Positions 174-58,653 of a stretch of 64,000 bases of DNA are shown in pieces. Within the stretch, counting starts at the first letter, position 1; the number at the start of each line of letters is the position of its first letter. The notes beneath the pieces are model-generated. The model searched no databases, was not told where the DNA came from, and worked only from the letters and a program-made list of their open reading frames with translations. The position numbers were made by a program, and so were the translations under genes. Source of the stretch: Eledone cirrhosa (taxonomy: Eukaryota); assembly GCA_964016885.1 (NCBI GenBank), contig OZ024758.1, forward strand, positions 17,174,001-17,238,000, in the 5' to 3' direction.

Positions 174-1991
174 ATCATCATCATCATTCATCATCAACGT
201 TTAACATCCGTGTTCCACGCTTGCTTGGGTTTGGACGGGGGTAGTCCCACTTGAGGCAAGAGTGATTGTCTTGCTCGCATAGGACTGTCTGGCAGGTTTT
301 CTACAGTTGGATGCCCTTCCTAACACCAACCACATTTACAGTGTGGGTCTGGGAGGTTTTTACCGTGTTGCCTACACGGCCACATTACAGCGTGGACTGT
401 GTGTTTTTTTGTCGTGACACCTACACGATCTCATTTGTTTCGGCCTGGATGGCGCGGCACCAACATAACTTTACATTGAACGGGGTGGTGTGGATGGGGT
501 GGGGGTGGTGGTGGTGGGACGGGGTGTATTTTGTTAGAGATGCCTACTGGCTGGAGTGGGTTTTACTATATATTTAGGTAAGGCGGGTCTTTTCTGTTAC
601 TGAGTACCGCCAAAGGTCTCGGTCCAGTGACATTGTCTTGGAGAGATGTAAGTGTGTGAGGTCGGAGTTTATCAGCTCGTCCCAGGTTTTTCTAGGTCTG
701 CCTATTCCGTGGCTACCGTCTATCTTTATTGCCCTGCACTTTGTTATACAGCTATCGACTTTCATGCGCATCACGTGTCCTTACCAACGTAGCCTTCTCT
801 CGAGTAAACAACATCTGATCCCTCTTATCTCTAATTTTTTCCTTAGTTCGTTTATGCTTTGCCGTTCACGTATATTACTGTTACACATCAAGCGGAGCAT
901 GCAAGCTTCGTTCCTCTCTAGTCTGCGTATATCCTCTGCACACAATGCCCAGGTCTCCCTGCCATGCAACATTGCTGTTCGTATGCAGGCATCGTACAAC
1001 CTGCCTTTCATTTTTAGGGAGAACCCTTTAGCAGCTAATAGTGGTATAAGCTCTCTGAACTTTTTCCAACCAGTTCTGACTCTAGCTACTGTACTTTCAG
1101 AGCACCCTCCCCCACTGCTGATTTTATCGCCCAGGTAACGGAAGCTGTCCACTATTTCTATAGAACCCTCTGCGCAATTGAAAGAGCTAGTATTTTGTGG
1201 GCACTTGCTGCTACTTATTGCACCAGAACACTGGCCACATGTAAAATCTATGTTCTTAGTTAGCTTACCTGTGATCCCACTACATCTTTTATGCACCCAT
1301 ACTTTGCATTTAGGACATAAAATGGAGTTTCTACCTACGCCTTTCCTACACACCGAGCACGACCATTTTCCAGAAGGGACCGCCGCCTTGTTTTCTTTCC
1401 TACAAACTAGAACTTTGGTCTTAGCCAGGTTAATTTTAAGTCCTTTTGACTCTAGGCCGTGCTTCCATGTTTGGAATTTCTTCTCTAGCTCGGCCATTGA
1501 TTCCGCTATGAGTGTCAGGTCGTCTGCGTATAGGAGTTCCCATGGGCAGCCGGTCTTGAACTCCTCTGTTATAGCCTGAAGGGCAATAATAAATAGTAGG
1601 GGGCTGAGAACAGAGCCCTGATGGACGCCAACTTTTACGCTAAACTCTTCACTATATTCGTTGTTAATTCTAACCTTGCTGACTGTTTCTTTATACATGG
1701 TTTGTATAGCCCTCACAAGACATTCGTCAACGCCTAGTTTTCTAAGAGCCCACCAGATAATGGAGCGGGGGACTCTGTCGAAGGCTTTCTCCAAGTCGAC
1801 AAAAGCTAAGTAGAGGGGTTTACCTTTAGCTAGGTACTTCTCCTGTAGTTGTCGTACTATGAAAAGAGCGTCTGTGGTACTTTTGCCTGACACAAACCCG
1901 AACTGCATTTCATCTAGGTCAATTCTCTCTCTGATTAGTTGCGCTATTACTTTTTCCGTGACCTTCATGACCTGGTCGATTAATTTAATGC
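174..1991 (-). mobile_element. RTE-clade LINE, family A, 5'-truncated, with ~400-bp 3' UTR and (GAT)n tail
   Basis: RT ORF 781-1968 with AFVDLEKAFD, GVHQGSVLSP and LYADD motifs, continuing into the 574-774 C-terminal ORF (GRPRKTW). A (CAT)n tail lies at ~174-197 and (TA)-rich DNA flanks both sides. Confidence 0.95.
574..1991 (-). pseudogene. RTE reverse transcriptase ORF remnant (RT + Cys/His finger + C-terminus) with premature stop at 781-783
   Basis: RRLRW*GHVMRM here versus RRLRWYGHVMRM in the sister copy at ~5190-5220. Confidence 0.9.
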
Positions 1992-2602
1992 TATCTATAT
2001 ATATCTATAAATATATAGTATATAATATAAATATATATATCTATACATATAGTATATTATATATATATCTTAACATATATAGTATATTATATATATATCT
2101 TAACATATATAGTATATTACATATATATATCTATATCTATACATATATATAATATATTTGTCTGTTTGAGTAGGAGAGATTAAGAGACAGTGAGTGTGTG
2201 ATAGATAAATAGAGAGAGAGAGGGGGTGAAATATAGAGATAAAGGGAGGGAGTAAGGTGGTGAGAGAAGAAAATGGAAATGAGGAATGAAAGTGAGGCAA
2301 ACAAAGAATAAGTGATTCTGTAATCAATATAAAGAAATCAATTATTTAAAATAATAAATATAGATATATTTAGAAAATATTTGAAACCTGTTAACATAAA
2401 TAAGTATTTTATAAAGCTGTTTAAGTAATTTTAAATGTTAAACATATATACAGAGACACCATAACAATTCTGAGTTGTTTTATTTATTTATTTATATATT
2501 TATTTTTCTTATTTATTTATTTATTTATTCTTTCTATTTTGGTTTAGGTATTTTAATCATTTCCCAAATGGAATTTGACCTAAACGCTGAAAATAGAAAG
2601 GT

Positions 2603-2653
<51 letters not shown>

Positions 2654-2680
2654 AATGTATATATATATATATATATATAT

Positions 2681-3005
2681 CATCATCATCATTTTACATC
2701 CGCTTTTCCCTGCTTGCAAGGGTGGGACGGGAACTGATTCTGGCTTGATTTCTACAGCTGGATGCCCTTCCTAACACCAACCTCATTTACAGTGAGTGCT
2801 AGGTGCTTTTTTGTTGTGGCACCTCCATGACCACTTTGCAGTGGAATGATAGGGACCCCAGTCCCTATCATCTCATTTCTACACCTGCGTAAACTGGAGC
2901 AATGTGAAATAAAATGTCTTGCTCAAGGAAACAACACATCACCTGGTCTGAGAATTAAACTCACAACCTTTAGATTGCAAGGCCAATGCTCTAACCACTA
3001 AGCCA
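2681..3005 (-). mobile_element. tRNA-derived SINE (family S1) with RTE family C 3' tail
   Basis: Minus strand reads A box TGGCTTAGTGG, a B-box-like GTTTAATTC, CCTTGAGCAAGACA central motif and tail CCCGTCCCACCCTTGCAAGCAGGGAAAAGCGGATGTAAAATGATGAT, matching the LINE end at ~58590-58650. Confidence 0.9.
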
Positions 3006-3466
3006 TAATATCTTGTCTTTATTACTAAATGTAAACAAAATAAAATATGTTTGAATATTATTAAAAAATTTGAATAACTCGAGTACCGAAATCAACTGCT
3101 AAATAACAAAAGCAACAATATGTATATATTCTTTTCAAATCCATGGTATTTATATTTATGTTTAACGCAAACAAAAATTTTAAAGATGGAAAAATTATCA
3201 ACAGCAAAATAGAAAGGAAAATAGCTTATATAAATTATCAAAGATATACTTCAATCTATGCTGTAAGATAATAGAGAAAAAATTGGATGAAGAGAACGGT
3301 AAATATATTTAGTATTCTCTAGAAATATATTTTATGAGTAAATGTTTTGGCAAATCTCAAGTATTTTTTAAAATGTATTTTTGGAAAAAGTTTAAAAAAT
3401 TTACTATGTGCACACCTGTGGGCGTGTTTTGACAAGTAACAAGGGTTATATATATATATATACATA

Positions 3467-3504
<38 letters not shown>

Positions 3505-3508
<4 letters not shown>

Positions 3509-3694
3509 TATAGATGAGATTCTACAGGACTAGAACTGTTTCATTCTTTAGAAATCATCAGGAATCGCTGATGATTTCTAAAGAATGAAACAGTTCTAGT
3601 CCTGTAGAATCTCATCTATATTAAAACTTTTATACTCTGCAATGTATTGAGTACCTTACTTACTGTGGTTACCTCCGATTCAACCCGGAATAAC

Positions 3695-3695
<1 letters not shown>
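3505..3695. mobile_element. Hammerhead-bearing Penelope-like mini-element (family H1): 57-bp perfect inverted arms plus ~70-nt tail, in (TA)n
   Basis: Arms 3505-3561 and 3568-3624 around loop GAATCG. The right arm continues into a tail shared with 56860-56993. Confidence 0.75.
3518..3566 (-). ncRNA. Type I hammerhead ribozyme (H1)
   Basis: Minus strand: GATTC-CTGATGA-T-TTC taaa GAA-T-GAAA-CAG ttctagtc CTG-TA-GAATC. Stem I is GATTC/GAATC and the cleavage triplet is GUA. There is a U.U at the base of stem II. Confidence 0.7.
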
Positions 3696-3771
<76 letters not shown>

Positions 3772-4040
3772 GAAGTTAGTAAAATCGAAGTTGTGGCGCT
3801 CAGCCAGCATCCACGAAAGAAAACAATATTCGGAGCTTTTCACAAAGCACACAATAAGAAGATATTGATAAATTGCTAAGTTATATCTTAGAGTAATAAA
3901 CATACGTTAAAGGCATGACAAATTGAAAGCTGTGGTTAAGGGGACAGAGCCACAGAGGCCACCACAACAACGAAAATATAATCAGGTTAAATAACAAAGT
4001 AAATACGAAGTAATTTCAGATGTTAAAGTCATTTATTGAT

Positions 4041-4521: not shown

Positions 4522-4921
4522 AAGGTACATGGCTTAGTGGTTAGAGCATTGGGCTTGCAATCAAAAGGTTGTGAGTTCAATTCTCAGACCAGGTGATGTG
4601 TTGTTTCCTTGAGCAAGACACTTTATTTCACATTGCTCCAGTATACTCAGCTGTAGAAATGAGATGGAATGATAGGGACCCCAGTCCCTATCATTCCATT
4701 GCAATGTGGTTGTGGAGGTGCCACGGCAAAAAATCACCCAGCACTCACTGTAAATGAGGTTGGTGTTAGGAAGGACATCCAGCTGTAGAAATCAAGCCAG
4801 AATCAGTTCCCGTCCCACCCTTGCAAGACAAGGTCAGCTGACCAGACACTGCCCATAACAGGACAACCCGTCTAACCCATGCTAGCGTGGAAGAACAGAT
4901 GTAAAACGGTGATGATGATGA
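4522..4921 (+). mobile_element. tRNA-derived SINE S1 with chimeric double tail (family C tail start, then family B tail)
   Basis: A/B boxes at 4529-4584; CCCGTCCCACCCTTGCAAG (~4808-4827) is followed by GGTCAGCTGACCAGACACTGCCC...CCCATGCTAGCGTGGAAGAAC and (GAT)n. Confidence 0.85.
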
Positions 4922-11973: not shown

Positions 11974-12010
11974 ATACAATATGTTGAAAAGGTAACACAC
12001 TATCGTGATA
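11974..12010. mobile_element. ~35-bp mini-derivative of the 43.25-44.82 kb hammerhead element (both termini only)
   Basis: TACAATATGTTGAAAAGGTAACACAC (left terminus of the 43-kb element) joined to TATCGTGA (its right terminus), within (TA)n. Confidence 0.7.
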
Positions 12011-12064
12011 TATATATATATATGTTTCTTTTATATATATATAGATAGATAGATACACACACAC

Positions 12065-28990: not shown

Positions 28991-29360
28991 ATATTATTCA
29001 AAATATTAATAAATGAAAAATATTCTCATAATCAAAATATATATTTTATTATACATATTTCAAAGATACAATGGTGTTTAAGAATGTTTTCATCAGATAA
29101 AATATATAAGAGATTGGATATGCGACATTATTCAATTCCAATAGTGCCACTATTGGAATTGAATAATCAAAACGTACTTAAACACCATTATACCTTTGAA
29201 ATACGTATAATAAAATATATATTTTAATTATGAGAATATTTTTCATTTATTAATATTTTGAATAATATTAAAAACTCCAGAAAAATTCCATGTTGAGTGC
29301 TTCTAATCTATTGTAAGATTGTATTCATTGAGTAATCAACGAACCATATAAACTTTGGCT
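28991..29360. mobile_element. Penelope-like inverted-arm element (family H4) with hammerhead remnant and ~90-nt tail
   Basis: ~95-bp inverted arms (~28991-29088 and ~29168-29268), internal hairpin ATTATTCAATTCCAATAG...CTATTGGAATTGAATAAT followed by C-AAAACGTA, and a tail ending at (TA)n. Confidence 0.55.
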
Positions 29361-43217: not shown

Positions 43218-43253
<36 letters not shown>

Positions 43254-43410
43254 CAATATATTGAAAAGGTAACACACCAGAGAGAGATATACAGTGCGCT
43301 ATCAATAAAACAGGGAAAAAACCCCCAGTGTATGGTATTTATAACCTATGAAAGGCAGACTATAGACACGATAATTAAAAATATAAATTAAAGCATAAAT
43401 AAATACCTCT

Positions 43411-43513
43411 ATAACTATATAACACACGTACAAATCCAAAGAGATCTGTTTCACCAATAATTTGTTGACAGAAATGGAATAACCTCGGTTCATCAGCGTG
43501 TGTAAGGCTATAC
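43411..43513 (-). ncRNA. Type I hammerhead ribozyme, copy 1 (predicted cleavage 43429/43428)
   Basis: Minus strand: TATAGC ctt ACACACG-CTGATGA-ACCGA...TTGGT-GAAA-CAGATC tctttg GATTTG-TA-CGTGTGT tatata GTTATA. The core is complete, with a 7-bp stem I plus internal loop and distal helix, a 7-bp stem III and a GUA site. Confidence 0.88.
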
Positions 43514-43965
43514 ATTTCAGACAACACTAAGAGAATTTTAAAAGTGACTGTGCAGCTACACGTGGGAGAGAGAAGTCACAGCGTGTTTAAGGGCAGTGAA
43601 CCAGTGGCCTCTGAGGAGCGAGCTGCTAGAAAGGGCAGCCCAAAACCACTCAGAGAAGTGTGCCAACCAAACAGAGAGATAGGAAAGACTGTTATAAGGA
43701 GCGAAATATCACGATAAATTAATGGAGCCATAGGCCCTCGTCATTCCCTGTAAATAATGTGCTCAAAGGAGAAGAAATCCTGAGCTCTTTAAAATACAAT
43801 ATGTTGAAAAGGTAACACACCAGAGAGAGATATACAGTGCGCTATCAATAAAACAGGGAAAAAAACCACCAGTGTATGGAATCTATAACCTATGAAAGGC
43901 AGACTATAGACACGATAATTAAAAATATAAATTAAAGCGTAAATAATTACCTCTATAACTATATA

Positions 43966-44045
43966 ACACACGTACAAATCCAAAGAGATGTTTCGCCAGT
44001 AATTTGTTGACAGAAATAGAAGAACCTCAGTTCATCAGCGTGTGT
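43966..44045 (-). ncRNA. Type I hammerhead ribozyme, copy 2 (cleavage 43973/43972; 2-nt deletion in stem III)
   Basis: Same core. Plus strand reads GAGATGTTTC versus GAGATCTGTTTC in the other copies. Base of stem II is weaker (ACTG/TGGC). Confidence 0.75.
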
Positions 44046-44507
44046 AAGGCTATACATTTCAGACAACACTAAGAGAATTTTAAAAGTGACTGTGCAGCTA
44101 CACGTGGGAGAGAGAAGTCACAGCGTGTTTAAGGGCAGTGAACCAGTGGCCTCTGAGGAGCGAGCTGCTAGAAAGGGCAGCCCAAAACCACTCAGAGAAG
44201 TGTGCCAACCAAACAGAGAGATAGGAAAGACTGTTATAAGGAGCGAAATATCACGATAAATTAATGGAGCCATAGGCCCTCGTCATTCCCTGTAAATAAT
44301 GTGCTCAAAGGAGAAGAAATCCTGAGCTCTTTAAAATACAATATGTTGAAAAGGTAACACACCAGAGAGAGATATACAGTGCGCTATCAATAAAACAGGG
44401 AAAAAAACCACCAGTGTATGGAATCTATAACCTATGAAAGGCAGACTATAGACACGATAATTAAAAATATAAATTAAAGCGTAAATAATTACATCTATAA
44501 CTATATA

Positions 44508-44589
44508 ACACACGTACAAATCCAAAGAGATCTGTTTCGCCAGTAATTTGTTGACAGAAATAGAAGAACCTCAGTTCATCAGCGTGTGT
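44508..44589 (-). ncRNA. Type I hammerhead ribozyme, copy 3 (cleavage 44515/44514)
   Basis: ACACACG-CTGATGA-...-GAAACAGATCtctttgGATTTGTA-CGTGTGT. Confidence 0.82.
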
Positions 44590-45892
44590 AAGGCTATACA
44601 TTTCAGACTACACTAAGAGAATTTTAAAAGTGACTGTCCAGCTACACGTGGGAGAGAGAAGTCACAGTGTGTTTATTGATAGCGCACTGTATATCTCTCT
44701 CTGGTGTGTTACCTTTTCAACATATTATATTTTAAAGAGCTCAGGATTTCTTCTCCTTTGACCACATTATTTACAGGGAATGGCAAGCGCCTATGGCTCC
44801 GTTAATTTATCATGATATATATATATATGTCTGTATGTGTGTGAATATGTGTTCATTCTATGAAAAATAGACCTAATGATCAAGAATAATAATTTATTCA
44901 TATATAATGTCTGATATTTAAACTACAGTTATGTGTGATATTAAGTTTCTTAAACCTGATAGCAATATGGTCATAGAAAATAGTATCACATATGTAATAT
45001 TGTGAGTTTCTGAACACATTATAGCAGAGGCAGTATAGCTAGAGTGTCAGGCAATATGCTTTGCATTATGCATTATATACTTATGTCTGGATACTGGATT
45101 GGCAGTATCGGTAGCGGGTCAGACGCCATGCTTTGCAACATAGAGTTACAGCCCTTTACGGTCTGAGTTCAAATCCCGTCGAGGTTAACTTTGCCTTTCA
45201 GCCTTACGGGGTTGATAAAATAAAGTACCAGTAATGCACTGGGATAATTGCTGGCCTTGTGCCAAAAGCAGAAACAACTATATAGTTATGTCTCATTACA
45301 TTCTGAGTTCAAATCCCGCCGAGGTTAGCTTTGCCTTTTATCCTTACGGGGTCGATAAAATAAAGTACCAGTAATGCACTGAGGTCAATTTAATTGACTT
45401 TCCCCCTTTCCCTTCAAATTGCTGGCCTTGTGCCTGAAGTAGAAACAATTATTAATCTGTTATTTGGACCATAAATTATCAAAGACTCTTCCATAGAATT
45501 CTGAGGGAATATTTTCAAATAAATATAAATATTGTAAAATTAACATCTTTGGATTGAAGACCCAGGGGTAGTTGCAAGCGAGTTGGTATGGCAGGGGATA
45601 CCCAACCTCTTAAAAGTGTGAAATGCTGACCTAACTATACTGTTTAGATCATGTGTATTGAAAAGCATTTTATATTTTGGACATGGAATGCAAAACTGTA
45701 TGTAAGCTGTTTTACAAATTTACGAAGGTTTAACAAAATATCTTATATAGAGAGCAAAAGGAAAACTAAACTGGGTTTTACACCCACATATACAGATACA
45801 CACATGCACATGCATAAGTATTCATATAAAAACATACACATGCATATATAGCTATAAATATATTTATATACAGACATCAATGTCTATATATG

Positions 45893-53082: not shown

Positions 53083-55798
53083 ATCATCATCATCATCATC
53101 ATCACCATTTTACGTCCGTTCTTCCACGCTAGCATGGGTTAGACGGGTTGTCCTGTTGTGGGCAGTGTCTGGTCGGCTGACCATGCCTTGCTCATACAGG
53201 AACTGATCTGGCTTGATTTCTACAGCTGGATGCCCTTCCTAACACCAACCTCATTTACAGTGAGTGCTGGGTGCTTTTTCGTGGCGCCTACACGTCCACT
53301 TTACAGTGTGGGCTGGGTGCTTTTTTGCCGTGGCACCTCCACGACCACCTTGCGGTGGGGGGGGGGGGCATATTGTTTATATGCTTCAGCATGTACCCAT
53401 GGGAGGTCGGGTACCCTGTATTACTGCGTGACGCCAGAAGTCACGGTCGTGTGTCATTGACTTTGAGAGGTGTAGTTGGGTAAGGTCGGCTTTTATCACC
53501 TCATCCCAAGTCATCTTGGGTCTCCCCACTCCGCGGTTTCCATCAACTTCTAGTGCTCTGCACCTTTTTATGCAGCTGTCATCCTTCATACGCATCACAT
53601 GTCCATACCAGCGTAACCGCCTCTCCTGCACGCAGCATTTGATTCCTCTTATGCTCAGTCTCTCTCTCAATTCATTTATGCTTTGTCGTTCACGTATATT
53701 ACTGTTACACATCCATCGGAGCATGCAGGCTTCGTTTCTCTCTAATCTACGTAAGTCTTCCACCTTCAGCGCCCAGGTCTCACTACCATGCAACATCGCT
53801 GTTCGGATACACGCATCATACAGTCTGCCTTTCATTCTGAGGGAGAAGCCTTTTGCAGCTAGCAGTGGTAGTAGTTCCCTAAACTTCTTCCATCCCGTTC
53901 TTACCCTAGTTATTGTACTTTCTGAGCACCCACCTCCGTTGCTAATTCGGTCACCTAGGTAGCAGAAGCTGTCTACTGTTTCTACAGGGCCCTCCCAGAG
54001 ATTGGTGGTACTTGTTTCCTGTGGCTGTTTGCTTGCTGTTTCAGCACAGCTGCTGCATGTGAATCCTACATTCTTAATTAAGCTTCCTGAGATCCCGCTA
54101 CATCTCTTGTGTACCCATTGTTTGCATTTGGGGCAAAGAATGGAGTTCCTACCTACACCTTTCCTACATACTGAGCAAGGCCATTTCCCTGAGGGGATCT
54201 GGGTTCTGTTTTCTCGTCTACTTATAAGGACCTTGGTCTTTGTCATGTTGACTTTGAGGCCCTTTCTCTCTAGTCCCTGCTTCCAGGTTTGGAATTTATT
54301 CTCTAGTTCTACCATAGATTCAGCTATGAGTGCGAGGTCATCAGCATACAGGAGTTCCCATGGGCATCCGGTCTTAAACTCCTCCGTTATTGCCTGCAGG
54401 ACTATGATGAACAGGAGAGGGCTAAGAACAGAGCCCTGGTGGACCCCAACCTGTACGCTAAATTCCTCGCTATACTCATTGCCAATCCTAACTTTGCTGA
54501 CTGCTCCCCTATACATGGCTTGTACCGCTTTCACAAGCCATTCATCTACTCCTAGTTTTCTAAGAGCCCACCAGATTACTGCACGTGGAACTCTGTCAAA
54601 GGCTTTCTCAAGGTCGACAAATGCCAAGTAGAGTGGCTTACTTTTAGCTAGGTACTTTTCCTGTAATTGCCTCACAAGGAAGAGCGCATCAGTGGTGCCT
54701 TTCCCTGGTACAAACCCAAATTGCATCTCGTCTATATTCACCCGGTCCCTAATCAGCTGTGCTATAACTCTTTCTGTTACTTTCATGACCTGGTCCATCA
54801 ACTTTATACCTCTATAGTTTCCTCTATCTAGTGCATCGCCTTTACCTTTGTAGCAGTTGACAATGATGCTACTGCACCAATCTTTTGGTATGGCCCCCTC
54901 TAGTATTACCTGGTTAACGATACGTGTGGTTATAGTGTGACCTACAGACCCAGATGCCTTCAGCATCTCGGCAGCTATACCCGATGGACCGGTTGCCTTC
55001 CCTATCTTCATATCTCTGATTGCCTTACTTACTACGCTGCCGCTGACTTGTACTGCTGGTCCCTCTATAGGGTCTACGTGGGGTAGGGTCTCTTCTTCCC
55101 ATGCATTCTCCTCATTTAGTAATCTATCATAATGACTCTTCCATGCATCTTTCTTCTCAGCACTTGTGAGGGCAAGCTCACCTTTATCATTCCGGATACA
55201 CTTCTCTCCAATGACATCACAACTATCTCTGACACACTGCCTCGCAATCTTGAATACCTCCTGTTTCTGGTCCTCACGTTGTAAAACATGCTTGAATTTT
55301 CTATCCTCTGCTTCCCTCCTAGCTAAGTATACTTGTCGCCTAGCTTCCCTCTTGGTCTCTATGTAATGTACCCTGCTCCCCCCGTTCTTCCATTCTTTCC
55401 ATGCCTGTCTCTTGGCCTTGACTGCTTCATCTACCTTATTGTTCCACCACCAAGTCACTCTCCTCCTGCTTGAGGTCTTACTCCAGCCACAAACCTCATC
55501 CGTCGCCTCTAGTAAGTTATTTTTTAGGAACTCCCAGTTCTCTTCTACGTTAAATGTCTCTATCTGTTCTTCTTTACTGTCGTAGGCGTTGAGTAAAATA
55601 TCTTTAAATCTGTTACTGGTTGAGGGGACTTTCAGCTTCCAGATCTTTCTTCTCCAGGTTGGCCTCTGTTTCAGGGCTCGTCTAGTTCTGACCGTGAGGT
55701 CGCTGACAACTAAGCTATGTTGGGATGTACATTCCTCACTAGGGAAGGCTTTTGTGTTTACGACCGTCCATCTGTCACGTCCTCTGATGAGGATAAAA

Positions 55799-55800
<2 letters not shown>
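53083..55800 (-). mobile_element. RTE-clade LINE, family B, 5'-truncated, young
   Basis: Uninterrupted ORF, ~290-bp 3' UTR, (GAT)n tail, (TA)n on both sides. Confidence 0.97.
53386..55800 (-). CDS. RTE ORF (C-terminal part of APE endonuclease + reverse transcriptase + Cys/His finger), no start codon
   Basis: The frame is open from 55800 (DFILIRGRD...EECTSQHSLVV, the APE C-terminal motifs) through NYRGIKL, DLEKAFD, QGSVLSP and YADD to the stop at 53386. Confidence 0.93.
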
Positions 55801-55846
<46 letters not shown>

Positions 55847-56466
55847 GAAAAGTATAGAAATTATTGTAGCAAGAAGCAAACAGTATTCCGTAATATATAA
55901 TATACTACTATAATAATAATAATTGTTTCTACTTTAGGCACAAGGCCAGCAATTACCCAGTGCATTACTGGTACATTATTTTATCGACCCCGTAAGGATG
56001 AAAGGCAAAGTCAACCTCGGCGGGATTTGAACGCAGATCGTAAAGGGACGTAACTATGCTGGAAAGCATGGCGTCCGACCCTCTACCGATACTGTCAAAT
56101 AATATATATATATATGTAGGCACATGGCTTAGTGGTTAGAGCATTGGCCTTGCAATCGAAAGGTTGTGAGTTCAATTCTCGGACAGGGTGATGTGTTGTT
56201 TCCTTGAGCAAGAGACTTTATTTCACATTGCTCCAGTTTACTCAGCTGTAGAAATGAGATGATAGGGACTGGGGTCCATATCATTCCACTGCAAAGTGGA
56301 ATGATATGGACCCCAGTCTCTATGACAAAAAGCACTCAGCACTCACTGTAAATGTGGTTGGTGTTAGGAAGGGCATCCAGCTGTAGAAATCAAGCCAGAA
56401 TCAGTTCCCGTCCCACCCTTGCAAGCAGGGAAAAGTGGACGTAAAATGATGATGATGATGATATAT

Positions 56467-56859: not shown

Positions 56860-56910
56860 AGATTCCTGATGATTTCTAATGAATGAAACAGTTCTAGTCC
56901 TGTAGAATCT
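56860..56910 (+). ncRNA. Type I hammerhead ribozyme (H1), predicted cleavage after 56904
   Basis: AGATTC-CTGATGA-T-TTC taat GAA-T-GAAA-CAG ttctagtc CTG-TA-GAATCT. The element continues to 56993. Confidence 0.72.
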
Positions 56911-57013
56911 CATCTATATTAAAACTGTTATACTCTGCTATGTATTGAGTACCTTACTTACTGTGGTTACCTCCGATTCAACCCGGAATAACGTATATAT
57001 ATATATATATATA

Positions 57014-58653
57014 TCGGGAATAGTTGCTGAGATGCTGAAGGCATCAGGGGACGTAGGCACTAAACTGGTTGCACGCATCATCAATCAGGCTATATATGGT
57101 GGTGTCATACCAAAAGACTGGTGCAGCAGTATTCTCATAAATTGCTACAAAGGTAAAGGGGATGCTTTGGAGAGGAGCAATTATAGGGGTATAAAACTGA
57201 TAGATCAGATTATGAAAGTGGCAGAAAGGATTTTAGCACAACTAATTAGAGAAAGGGTCAAACTAGATGAGATGCAGTTTGGTTTTGTGCCTGGGAAGAG
57301 TACAACAGATGCCCTCTTCTTGGTGAGACAATTGCAAGAGAGGTTCTTAGAGAAGAATAAGCCACTATACTTAGCCTTTGTTGACCTAGAGAAGGCCTTT
57401 GATAGGGTACCCCGATCTGTCATCTGGTGCTCCCTAAGGAAGCTGGGTGTTGAGGAATGGCTTGTGAGGACAGTGCAAACTTTGTACAGAGGTACTCTCA
57501 GTAAAGTCAGGGTAGGAATGGAGTTTAGTGAGGAATTCCAGATACAAGTAGGAGTACATCAGGGTTCGGTCCTCAGCCCGCTCTTGTTCATTATAGTCTT
57601 CCAAGCCATAACAGAGGAGTTTAAGACTGGCTGTCCATGGGAACTTCTCTATGCTGACAATCTGGTTCTTATAGTAGAATCAGTAGAGGAGCTAGAGAAT
57701 AAATTCTGGCTATGGAAACAGCAATTGGAAGCAAGAGGACTGAGAGTGAATCTAGCTAAGACAAAAGTGTTGATGATTAGAAAAGAGGACAAAACCCTGA
57801 TTCCATCAGGGAAATGGCCATGTTCGATATGCAGAAAAGGAACTGGCATAAATTCTATAAAATGCACACAATGCAGATCCTGGGTACACAAGAGATGTAG
57901 CGGGATAGCAGGCAAACTAACAGGTAGGGAGAAATATGTATGCAGAAGATGTACAGGGAAATTAGACAGTAGAAGTCGCATTGATAGACACATTTTTCAA
58001 ATGCAGGAGGGCGCTATAGAAGTGGTGGATAGCTTCCGGTACCTAGGAGATCAGATTAGCATGGGAGGAGGGTGTTCCGAGGCCATAGTATCTAGAATAA
58101 GGACGGGTTGGAAGAAGTTTAGGGAGCTGCTTCCTCTGTTGATGAAGAAGGGTTTCTCCCTGCGTATGAAAGGCCGGTTGTATGATGCCTGTGTGAGGAG
58201 CGCGATGCTGCATGTTAGTGAGACATGGGCAGCAACTGCAGAGGATATGCGACGGCTGGAGAGAAATGAGGCAAGCATGCTCCGTTGGATGTGCAGTGTA
58301 AATGTGCATGAACAACCAAGCATAAATGTGTTGAGAGAGAAACTGTGTCTGAGAGGGATAGAATGTAGTGTACGGGAGAGGAGACTGAGGTGGTATGGAC
58401 ATGTGATGCGCATGGAGGATGACCGATGGGTGAAGAAGTGCCAGGAATTGTCAGTTGAAGGAAGACGTGGTAGAGGTAGACCACGAAAAACATGGGCGGA
58501 GGTGGTGAGAACAGACCTCAGATCATTGAAGCTCACGGTGGAGATGACGAGGGACCGTGACGAGTGGAGAGATGCTGTGCTGAATAAGACCCGTCCCACC
58601 CTTGCAAGCAGGGAAAAGCGGATGTAAAATGATGATGATGATGATGATGATGA
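57014..58653 (+). mobile_element. RTE-clade LINE, family C, 5'-truncated, no 3' UTR
   Basis: RT ORF to 58627 runs directly into (GAT)n. The catalytic YADD is mutated to YADN. The N-terminus of the listed ORF 56945.. is non-LINE flank. Confidence 0.95.

Follow-up and report, generated by a model that had tools for sequence, protein, structure and literature searches.

Here we report a dispersed, non-coding family of 544-nt hammerhead repeats in the genome of Eledone cirrhosa, which we identify with good confidence as a non-LTR retrozyme; a Penelope-like RT/GIY-YIG protein likely copies it, in trans, into (TA)n tracts, and Penelope machinery is very probably its mover. Retrozymes are tandem non-coding hammerhead repeats that form circles, and Penelope elements have been proposed to move them (PMC7229834, 10.64898/2026.07.22.740005; statements on cited work refer to the available portions of each source). 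In those portions of the literature, two questions remain open, namely the enzyme that moves animal retrozymes and the way in which Penelope elements come to insert as tandem and inverted copies that carry a tail at a single end. Because the present family combines short, non-coding units with abundance and a division into subfamilies, its copies record insertion chemistry with good numbers. Its value lies in these family statistics: they connect a hammerhead repeat without coding capacity to insertion of Penelope type, and allow a model of priming at two sites on two strands to be tested. The family also provides a defined 544-nt RNA and two start sites, and the same genome supplies a protein-coding Penelope family that is young. 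A literature search covering few subscription journals returned no report of cephalopod retrozymes or of the strict one-site-per-arm rule described below.

A two-armed insertion in a (TA)n tract

The window analysed is a 64,000-nt stretch of this 3.0-Gb, microsatellite-rich genome (contig OZ024758.1, positions 17,174,001 to 17,238,000), and its copy of the family lies within a (TA)n tract (Table 1). Unit nucleotides are numbered from the first base past the predicted cut (nt 1 = 43972). The two arms of the insertion meet head to head and share a 4-nt overlap (44672–44675); the long arm runs from unit nt 384–544 through two full units to nt 1–179 and then into (TA)n. The inverted arm and the (TA)n at both sides are additions to the first-pass annotation of this DNA, which had described a tandem array. 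Target-site duplications are unreadable within (TA)n. The array units are ~98% identical, with a unit GC content of 39.2%, which is below 45%, and further copies of the 88-nt segment between the two fixed sites (the tail) lie in unit B (44248–44335) and in the inverted arm.

Unit B has six private changes in common with unit C (nt 26–421) and three with unit A (nt 486–497), a mosaic from which we infer a later local duplication. Judged by this pattern, the insertion would originally have carried two hammerheads, the third having arisen when one unit was duplicated in place, and the three-copy array would then not mirror the inserted RNA. No Penelope protein match was found in the window or inside element copies (tblastn of the window), six-frame translation revealed no long frame, and the window element lacks the single RT plus GIY-YIG frame of an autonomous Penelope-like element. 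The window locus is an ordinary, slightly or partly decayed family copy.

Table 1 Features of the window insertion and related loci
Feature	Position	Strand	Remark
Whole two-armed insertion of the 544-nt family, within (TA)n tract	43251–44818	.	Locus L001
Inverted short arm, unit nt 121–267	44672–44818	+	Starts at second fixed site, nt 267 (44818); adjoins (TA)n
Partial unit A, nt 384–544	44515–44675	-	5′-truncated start of long arm
Unit B, 542 nt	43973–44514	-	Mosaic
Unit C, 544 nt	43429–43972	-	Numbering reference
Terminal piece D, unit nt 1–179	43251–43428	-	First fixed site, nt 179 (43251), against (TA)n
88-nt tail between fixed sites, unit nt 180–267, in unit C	43706–43793	-	
(TA)n target tract, long-arm end	43232–43250	.	
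(TA)n target tract, inverted-arm end	44819–44827	.	
Type I hammerhead motif 1	44508–44589	-	Core 44582; A·C at 10.1–11.1
Type I hammerhead motif 2	43966–44045	-	Core 44038; A·C at 10.1–11.1; 2-nt stem III deletion
Type I hammerhead motif 3	43422–43503	-	Core 43496; GAAA 43452; A–U at 10.1–11.1
41-nt family fragment ending at unit nt 179, in (TA)n	11974–12014	-	Very short one-arm insertion
Loci with stem III 14-nt duplication	L016, L020–L022, L025–L027, L034–L036, L039, L041, L096, L098, L105, L113, L118, L119		

Hammerhead motifs and their putative activity

The three minus-strand hammerheads of the first-pass annotation were recovered, with cores spaced 544 and 542 nt apart. Each CUGAUGA core is accompanied by GAAA, a GUA triplet and a 7-bp stem I, which gives predicted cuts at 44515/44514, 43973/43972 and 43429/43428. 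Contrary to the first-pass annotation, the motif is not complete in every unit: the copies with cores at 44582 and 44038 carry the A·C mismatch at 10.1–11.1, and the latter, middle copy lacks 2 nt of stem III. In motif 1, the surroundings of stem II and loop II also carry three private changes. Motif 3, with a 5-bp stem II and an 8-bp stem III, is the best candidate for activity among the window motifs. What had been read as an unusually long stem II helix, 37 nt in length, resolves into 3–5 pairs closed by a loop of ~27 nt. The proposed extension of stem I can pair in 97% of cells across 39 distinct copies, with covariation no greater than in shuffles.

A descriptor for type I hammerheads, loosened after the motif had been seen so that three of four stem II pairs suffice, matched the array three times on the minus strand and never on the plus strand, and matched 4 of 20,000 shuffled units. 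No hammerhead reached the Rfam gathering score in a scan of the window, which returned only two tRNA-like matches. The hammerhead core is intact in all three window copies and conserved at ~98–99% per position across the family. Minor letters make up 1.3% at its 11 invariant positions, compared with 4.3% over the whole unit; as ordinary non-subfamily sites have 2.3%, the contrast is modest. The least variable part of the unit is nt 1–60, at 1.2%. The shared variants are located at N7, 11.1, loop II and distal stem III and avoid the 11 invariant positions, and the free position N7 is split among family copies (67 U, 42 G). One subfamily is marked by a 14-nt tandem duplication in stem III that keeps the basal pairs (Table 1).

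The 10.1–11.1 positions are unpaired in 27 of 39 distinct copies, as they are in two of the three in the window, and hammerhead covariation shows no excess over shuffles among these 39 copies, whose 95% identity makes the comparison uninformative. In a secondary-structure model, which excludes tertiary contacts, the weight of the active hammerhead fold is low, at ~1e-7, 2e-8 and 0.003 for the three window copies, and lowest in the two upstream ones. The folding energy of the sense circle is lower than in shuffles (z -3.25, 40 shuffles), which does not hold for the antisense circle (z -0.13).

The weak stem II, the frequent A·C mismatch and covariation no greater than in shuffles would also suit derivation of the copies, as end pieces or as an internal-deletion form, from an unseen autonomous Penelope-like element, with the hammerhead an inherited, weak or inactive passenger and an uncleaved tandem transcript, never a circle, serving as template. 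In the same direction, ribozyme mutants of the Anolis element left insertion unaffected, with unprocessed RNA as the main template (PMC11167929), and one of nine Xenopus retrozyme dimers was cleaved in vitro (10.64898/2026.07.22.740005). The subfamily changes, however, spare the 11 invariant core positions, and natural hammerheads with a weak stem II, even with a 10.1–11.1 mismatch, occur (PMC3088659). We consider the family hammerhead to be probably active.

Two further readings of this region were set aside. An 82-codon frame that starts in the hammerhead core is not conserved: in 42 of 112 copies its ATG is lost through the U-to-G change at N7. Pairing of loop II with the strand 5′ of stem I, either as a pseudoknot of a type known in hammerheads (PMC3088659) or as an inactive hairpin, is possible, but the subfamily changes both keep and break it.

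Family ends lie at two fixed sites

A full-unit search of the same genome gave 2,704 first-look candidates, of which 40 were scored (93–100% identity, on many contigs), and a search with nt 1–267 gave 1,954, of which 40 were likewise scored; both totals are first-look candidates, not copy numbers. The sample comprised 41 loci fetched from the full-unit search (40 distinct) and 29 from the nt 1–267 search, of which 68 were counted after exclusion of one duplicate and one multi-copy carrier locus. Since the loci fetched were all closest matches to the window copy, the sample favours a single age class.

Nearly all of these loci (63 of 68) terminate at one of two sites, nt 179 (27 loci) or nt 267 (36), located 179 and 267 nt beyond the predicted cut, and TA adjoins 59 of the 63 fixed-site ends. 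An inverted arm is present in 41 of the 68 loci and starts at 179 or 267 in 36 of them. Both ends lie at fixed sites in 34 two-armed loci, the remaining seven having at least one end elsewhere, and all 34 combine one end at 179 with one at 267. As the nt 1–267 search favours loci with a 267 end, the full-unit set can be taken alone, where the same pairing holds in 19 of 19. Both fixed sites end in AT-rich letters matching the target; they align poorly with each other, and local fold z-scores around them are unremarkable, so that a docking hairpin found no confirmation. At the arm junctions (40 cases), overlaps of 1–11 nt occur in 23 and about four fold back exactly, and several of the positive gaps stem from the alignment.

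Short overlaps of this kind would fit a LINE mover of RTE, CR1 or L1/Tx1 type that produced the inverted arms by L1-style twin priming, and LINE reverse transcriptase frames do lie within the window. In L1 twin priming, junction overlaps are short, the internal position of the second primer varies and the arms have no sequence in common. Here, by contrast, the arms begin at a pair of fixed sites, share sequence and carry no poly(A), and the end pattern matches that of a Penelope family of the same genome (see below). We consider a LINE mover very improbable.

The family shows neither the long local arrays nor the ragged ends of a satellite: 60 of the 68 loci have fewer than two direct units, the longest has 6.5 and the ends are sharp. 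A satellite or minisatellite spread by DNA recombination, with an incidental hammerhead, could draw on the local duplication that made units in the window array and in locus L033, and on the copies that ride in a DNA-transposon-like repeat. Most loci, however, have sharp, shared ends against TA, and recombination leaves the one-site-per-arm rule unexplained; this account receives hardly any weight from us. Insertion by Penelope machinery is the reading that we carry forward.

One variant per insertion, copied past the cut site

To compare the arms and units of single insertions, we used 15 subfamily-diagnostic sites, excluding five carrier loci. Between the inverted and direct arms of one insertion, 7 of 321 comparisons differ (2.2%; 37 loci, whose 94 arm pairs are not independent), against 48 of 709 between tandem units of one insertion (6.8%; 50 loci) and 44% between random pairs of loci. 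At non-diagnostic sites the difference is 3.4–3.8% in all three classes of comparison. The arms thus match at diagnostic sites and are equally divergent elsewhere, so they derive from one variant per insertion and underwent no later homogenisation. Matching arms fit a single RNA, and equally two RNAs from a single active or expressed source copy; whether one RNA serves both arms is, in our estimate, evenly balanced.

Among 73 arms that reach the cut site, one stops there and 72 read through, so new copies are not made from a linear cleaved monomer. Seven loci have at least two near-full units. In five of them the units are 2–6% apart and as old as the arms, so copying of more than one unit occurs at insertion; the other two, the window locus and L033, are later duplications, their duplicated units differing at 6 of 485 and 0–1 of 485 positions, respectively. 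Three loci (L007, L028 and L041) have at least three units as diverged as the arms, and L024 contains an assembly gap. In dozens of loci, the direct arms wrap from nt 268–544 back to nt 1, tracing a closed 544-nt circuit. That circuit, together with the three loci of at least three units, which require long multimers, jumps or a circle, counts against copies that are end pieces or deletion forms of an autonomous element.

Circles have been proposed as the template of more-than-unit copies (PMC4209133), and a circle is the simplest such template here, with uncut multimers or template jumps also fitting; we lean slightly towards a circular one. Family contigs also occur in four runs of unrecorded kind from one study. 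These contigs show neither strand nor circles, and none of the runs carrying the family is on record as RNA among those listed.

Penelope-like families and the search for a parent element

The Penelope-like families of the genome comprise five of Neptune type, families of Poseidon type and one of Hydra type, clade names that we assigned from domain order and motifs. A search with the GIY-YIG family gave 10,594 candidates, of which 150 were scored and 70 loci fetched, representing the five Neptune-type families and Poseidon-type ones; protein searches with the Poseidon and Hydra types led to 30 further fetched loci each. Copies of these elements end in (TA)n wherever the end is readable. In a Poseidon-type family with 900–905-aa frames, 13 of 20 fetched loci have two outward arms, whose ends, 40 nt apart and in (TA)n, are paired one each in 12 of the 13. 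A very young Poseidon-type family (L121–L150 and L221–L240), with many near-identical open frames of 900–905 aa, is a putative active element.

When 150 fetched Neptune-, Poseidon- and Hydra-type loci (a small share of more than 10,000 candidates) were searched with a profile of the unit, the only matches were two short TA-tract fragments and one known locus. Longer copies with RT and GIY-YIG, which the first-pass annotation had suggested seeking, did not emerge: none of these 150 loci shares the unit as a parent would. The flanks of 28 element loci gave no parent match against the Penelope families, and no coding sequence joins the direct arms upstream in the fetched loci. A weak resemblance to one Neptune-type end was seen for the 30 nt that precede site 179. 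It was reached in 1 of 500 shuffles, is the best of 16 comparisons and has a target that is partly TA repeat; we treat it as a lead at most. The resemblance would favour derivation of the copies from an unseen autonomous Penelope-like element; set against the closed circuit and the lack of upstream coding sequence in the fetched loci, that derivation appears unlikely. The preferred reading remains a non-coding retrozyme mobilised in trans.

Sequence upstream of the unit that is common to L009, L014, L019, L092 and L102 was tried as the 3′ UTR of a parent and dismissed on account of its sharp common 5′ end, varied flanks, 891 candidates and the absence of a Penelope frame in the shared part. 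It probably represents a DNA-transposon-like carrier. Unit copies ride in such a repeat at L102 (2376–4071), L009, L014, L019, L092 and L171–L220; several carrier-borne copies lack the 5′ strand of stem I, and some of these are followed by a 74-nt tandem repeat.

At L106 (reverse strand, 780–4029), two TA tracts enclose an inverted Hydra-type end, a Hydra-type RT/GIY-YIG copy without its own end, 39 nt of a third repeat and, last, unit nt 310–544 and 1–267. This single locus may be either a chimeric insertion by template jumping or the product of two insertions and a deletion.

A model for insertion

These observations can be combined in a model in which a tandem copy would be transcribed and the hammerhead would likely cut the transcript, with monomers that may be ligated into circles. 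A Penelope protein, probably a dimer, would bind the RNA downstream of the hammerhead and nick both strands of the TA tract. Each nicked strand would serve as a primer, with reverse transcription starting at nt 179 from one strand and at nt 267 from the other, probably on a single RNA. With a circle or an uncut multimer as template, both cDNAs would then extend beyond the cut site, end at differing positions and be joined head to head through short overlaps. At the window locus, one unit would have been duplicated in place afterwards.

A more specific version, which we offer tentatively, would place a Penelope-type RT dimer on one circular hammerhead RNA with two docking sites 88 nt apart, each subunit priming at its own site from its own strand of the nicked TA tract and both rolling round the circle. 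If this version is true, fixed-site double priming would explain why Penelope insertions have inverted arms, carry a tail on one side and can exceed one unit, and Penelope elements would be the movers of animal retrozymes.

Comparison with known systems

The present family shares with metazoan non-LTR retrozymes its non-coding tandem units with one type I hammerhead each, its GC content below 45% and its dispersal as monomers to short multimers (PMC7229834, 10.64898/2026.07.22.740005). With 544 nt, the unit exceeds the typical 300 nt of those elements, yet lies within their recorded ranges of 51–972 bp (10.64898/2026.07.22.740005) and 150 to >1000 nt (PMC7229834), contrary to the earlier impression that it seemed longer than known metazoan retrozymes. 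The family, initially thought unusual in kind, thus falls within known non-LTR retrozymes, and the first assignment to a non-LTR retrozyme or Penelope-type non-autonomous element is supported, in that copies are dispersed, can carry inverted arms, end at two fixed internal sites and lie in (TA)n. Inverted arms, ends at fixed internal sites and (TA)n targeting are not mentioned for retrozymes in the available portions of the metazoan accounts (PMC7229834, 10.64898/2026.07.22.740005). Relative to those retrozymes, the present hammerhead has a long loop II, a 3–5-bp stem II and an 8-bp stem III; homology of the unit to a Penelope pseudo-LTR was not found among the 150 fetched Penelope-type loci, and cleavage and circles are predicted features here. 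The minimal hammerheads of Penelope pseudo-LTRs have no stable stem III and a long stem II (PMC4209133), the reverse of the present arrangement.

Inverted arms, a one-sided tail and a (TA)n bias are hallmarks of Penelope elements (PMC8557442, PMC3846280). The family resembles the endonuclease-positive Poseidon, Neptune and Hydra elements in its partial tandems, inverted 5′-truncated arm, one-end tail and (TA)n targets, and the hammerhead of those elements sits in a terminal repeat (PMC8557442, PMC3846280). The family differs from them in having no RT/GIY-YIG frame and in its tail of 88 nt, compared with 30–40 nt (PMC8557442, PMC3846280).

The closest mechanistic parallel concerns the Poseidon element PAc of Anolis carolinensis, for which two internal start sites, extension on both strands and a predicted dimer have been described (PMC11167929). 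In both systems, two internal starts downstream of the hammerhead define a tail, the target is AT-rich and copying proceeds through the ribozyme. PAc is a coding element studied in vitro, whereas the present family is a non-coding passenger known from genomic copies. In vitro, PAc showed no strand difference in start site, in contrast to the strict one-site-per-arm rule seen here, and the PAc enzyme started at non-homologous sites in vitro, whereas the fixed sites of the present family match the AT-rich target (PMC11167929). In the available part of the main text of an octopus repeat annotation (PMC13282606), Penelope-like elements are listed and the terms 'hammerhead' and 'ribozyme' do not appear.

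Other elements in the window

A second, unrelated type I hammerhead-like motif is located at 29038–29108 on the minus strand (core 29096). It has a 12-bp AT-rich stem I and a minimal stem III, and belongs to a fold-back piece with an inverted partner at ~28991–29268. Related motifs lie ~1–1.5 kb downstream of Hydra-type GIY-YIG frames, so this copy is likely a Hydra-type end piece.

The window also contains LINE-type reverse transcriptase frames at 784–2004, 53389–55860 and 56906–58624 (407, 824 and 573 codons stop to stop), two of which face each other as a 72% inverted pair. The tRNA-like matches, at 4524–4591 (plus strand) and 2948–3005 (minus strand), score just above the Rfam threshold and are probably SINE heads. 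Finally, intron-like signals were recognised by eye on the minus strand at unit nt 23–82 (window 43950–43891) and ~nt 284 (43689), consisting of a GT donor-like site just past the cut and pyrimidine-rich AG acceptor-like sites; Penelope terminal repeats are known for intron retention.
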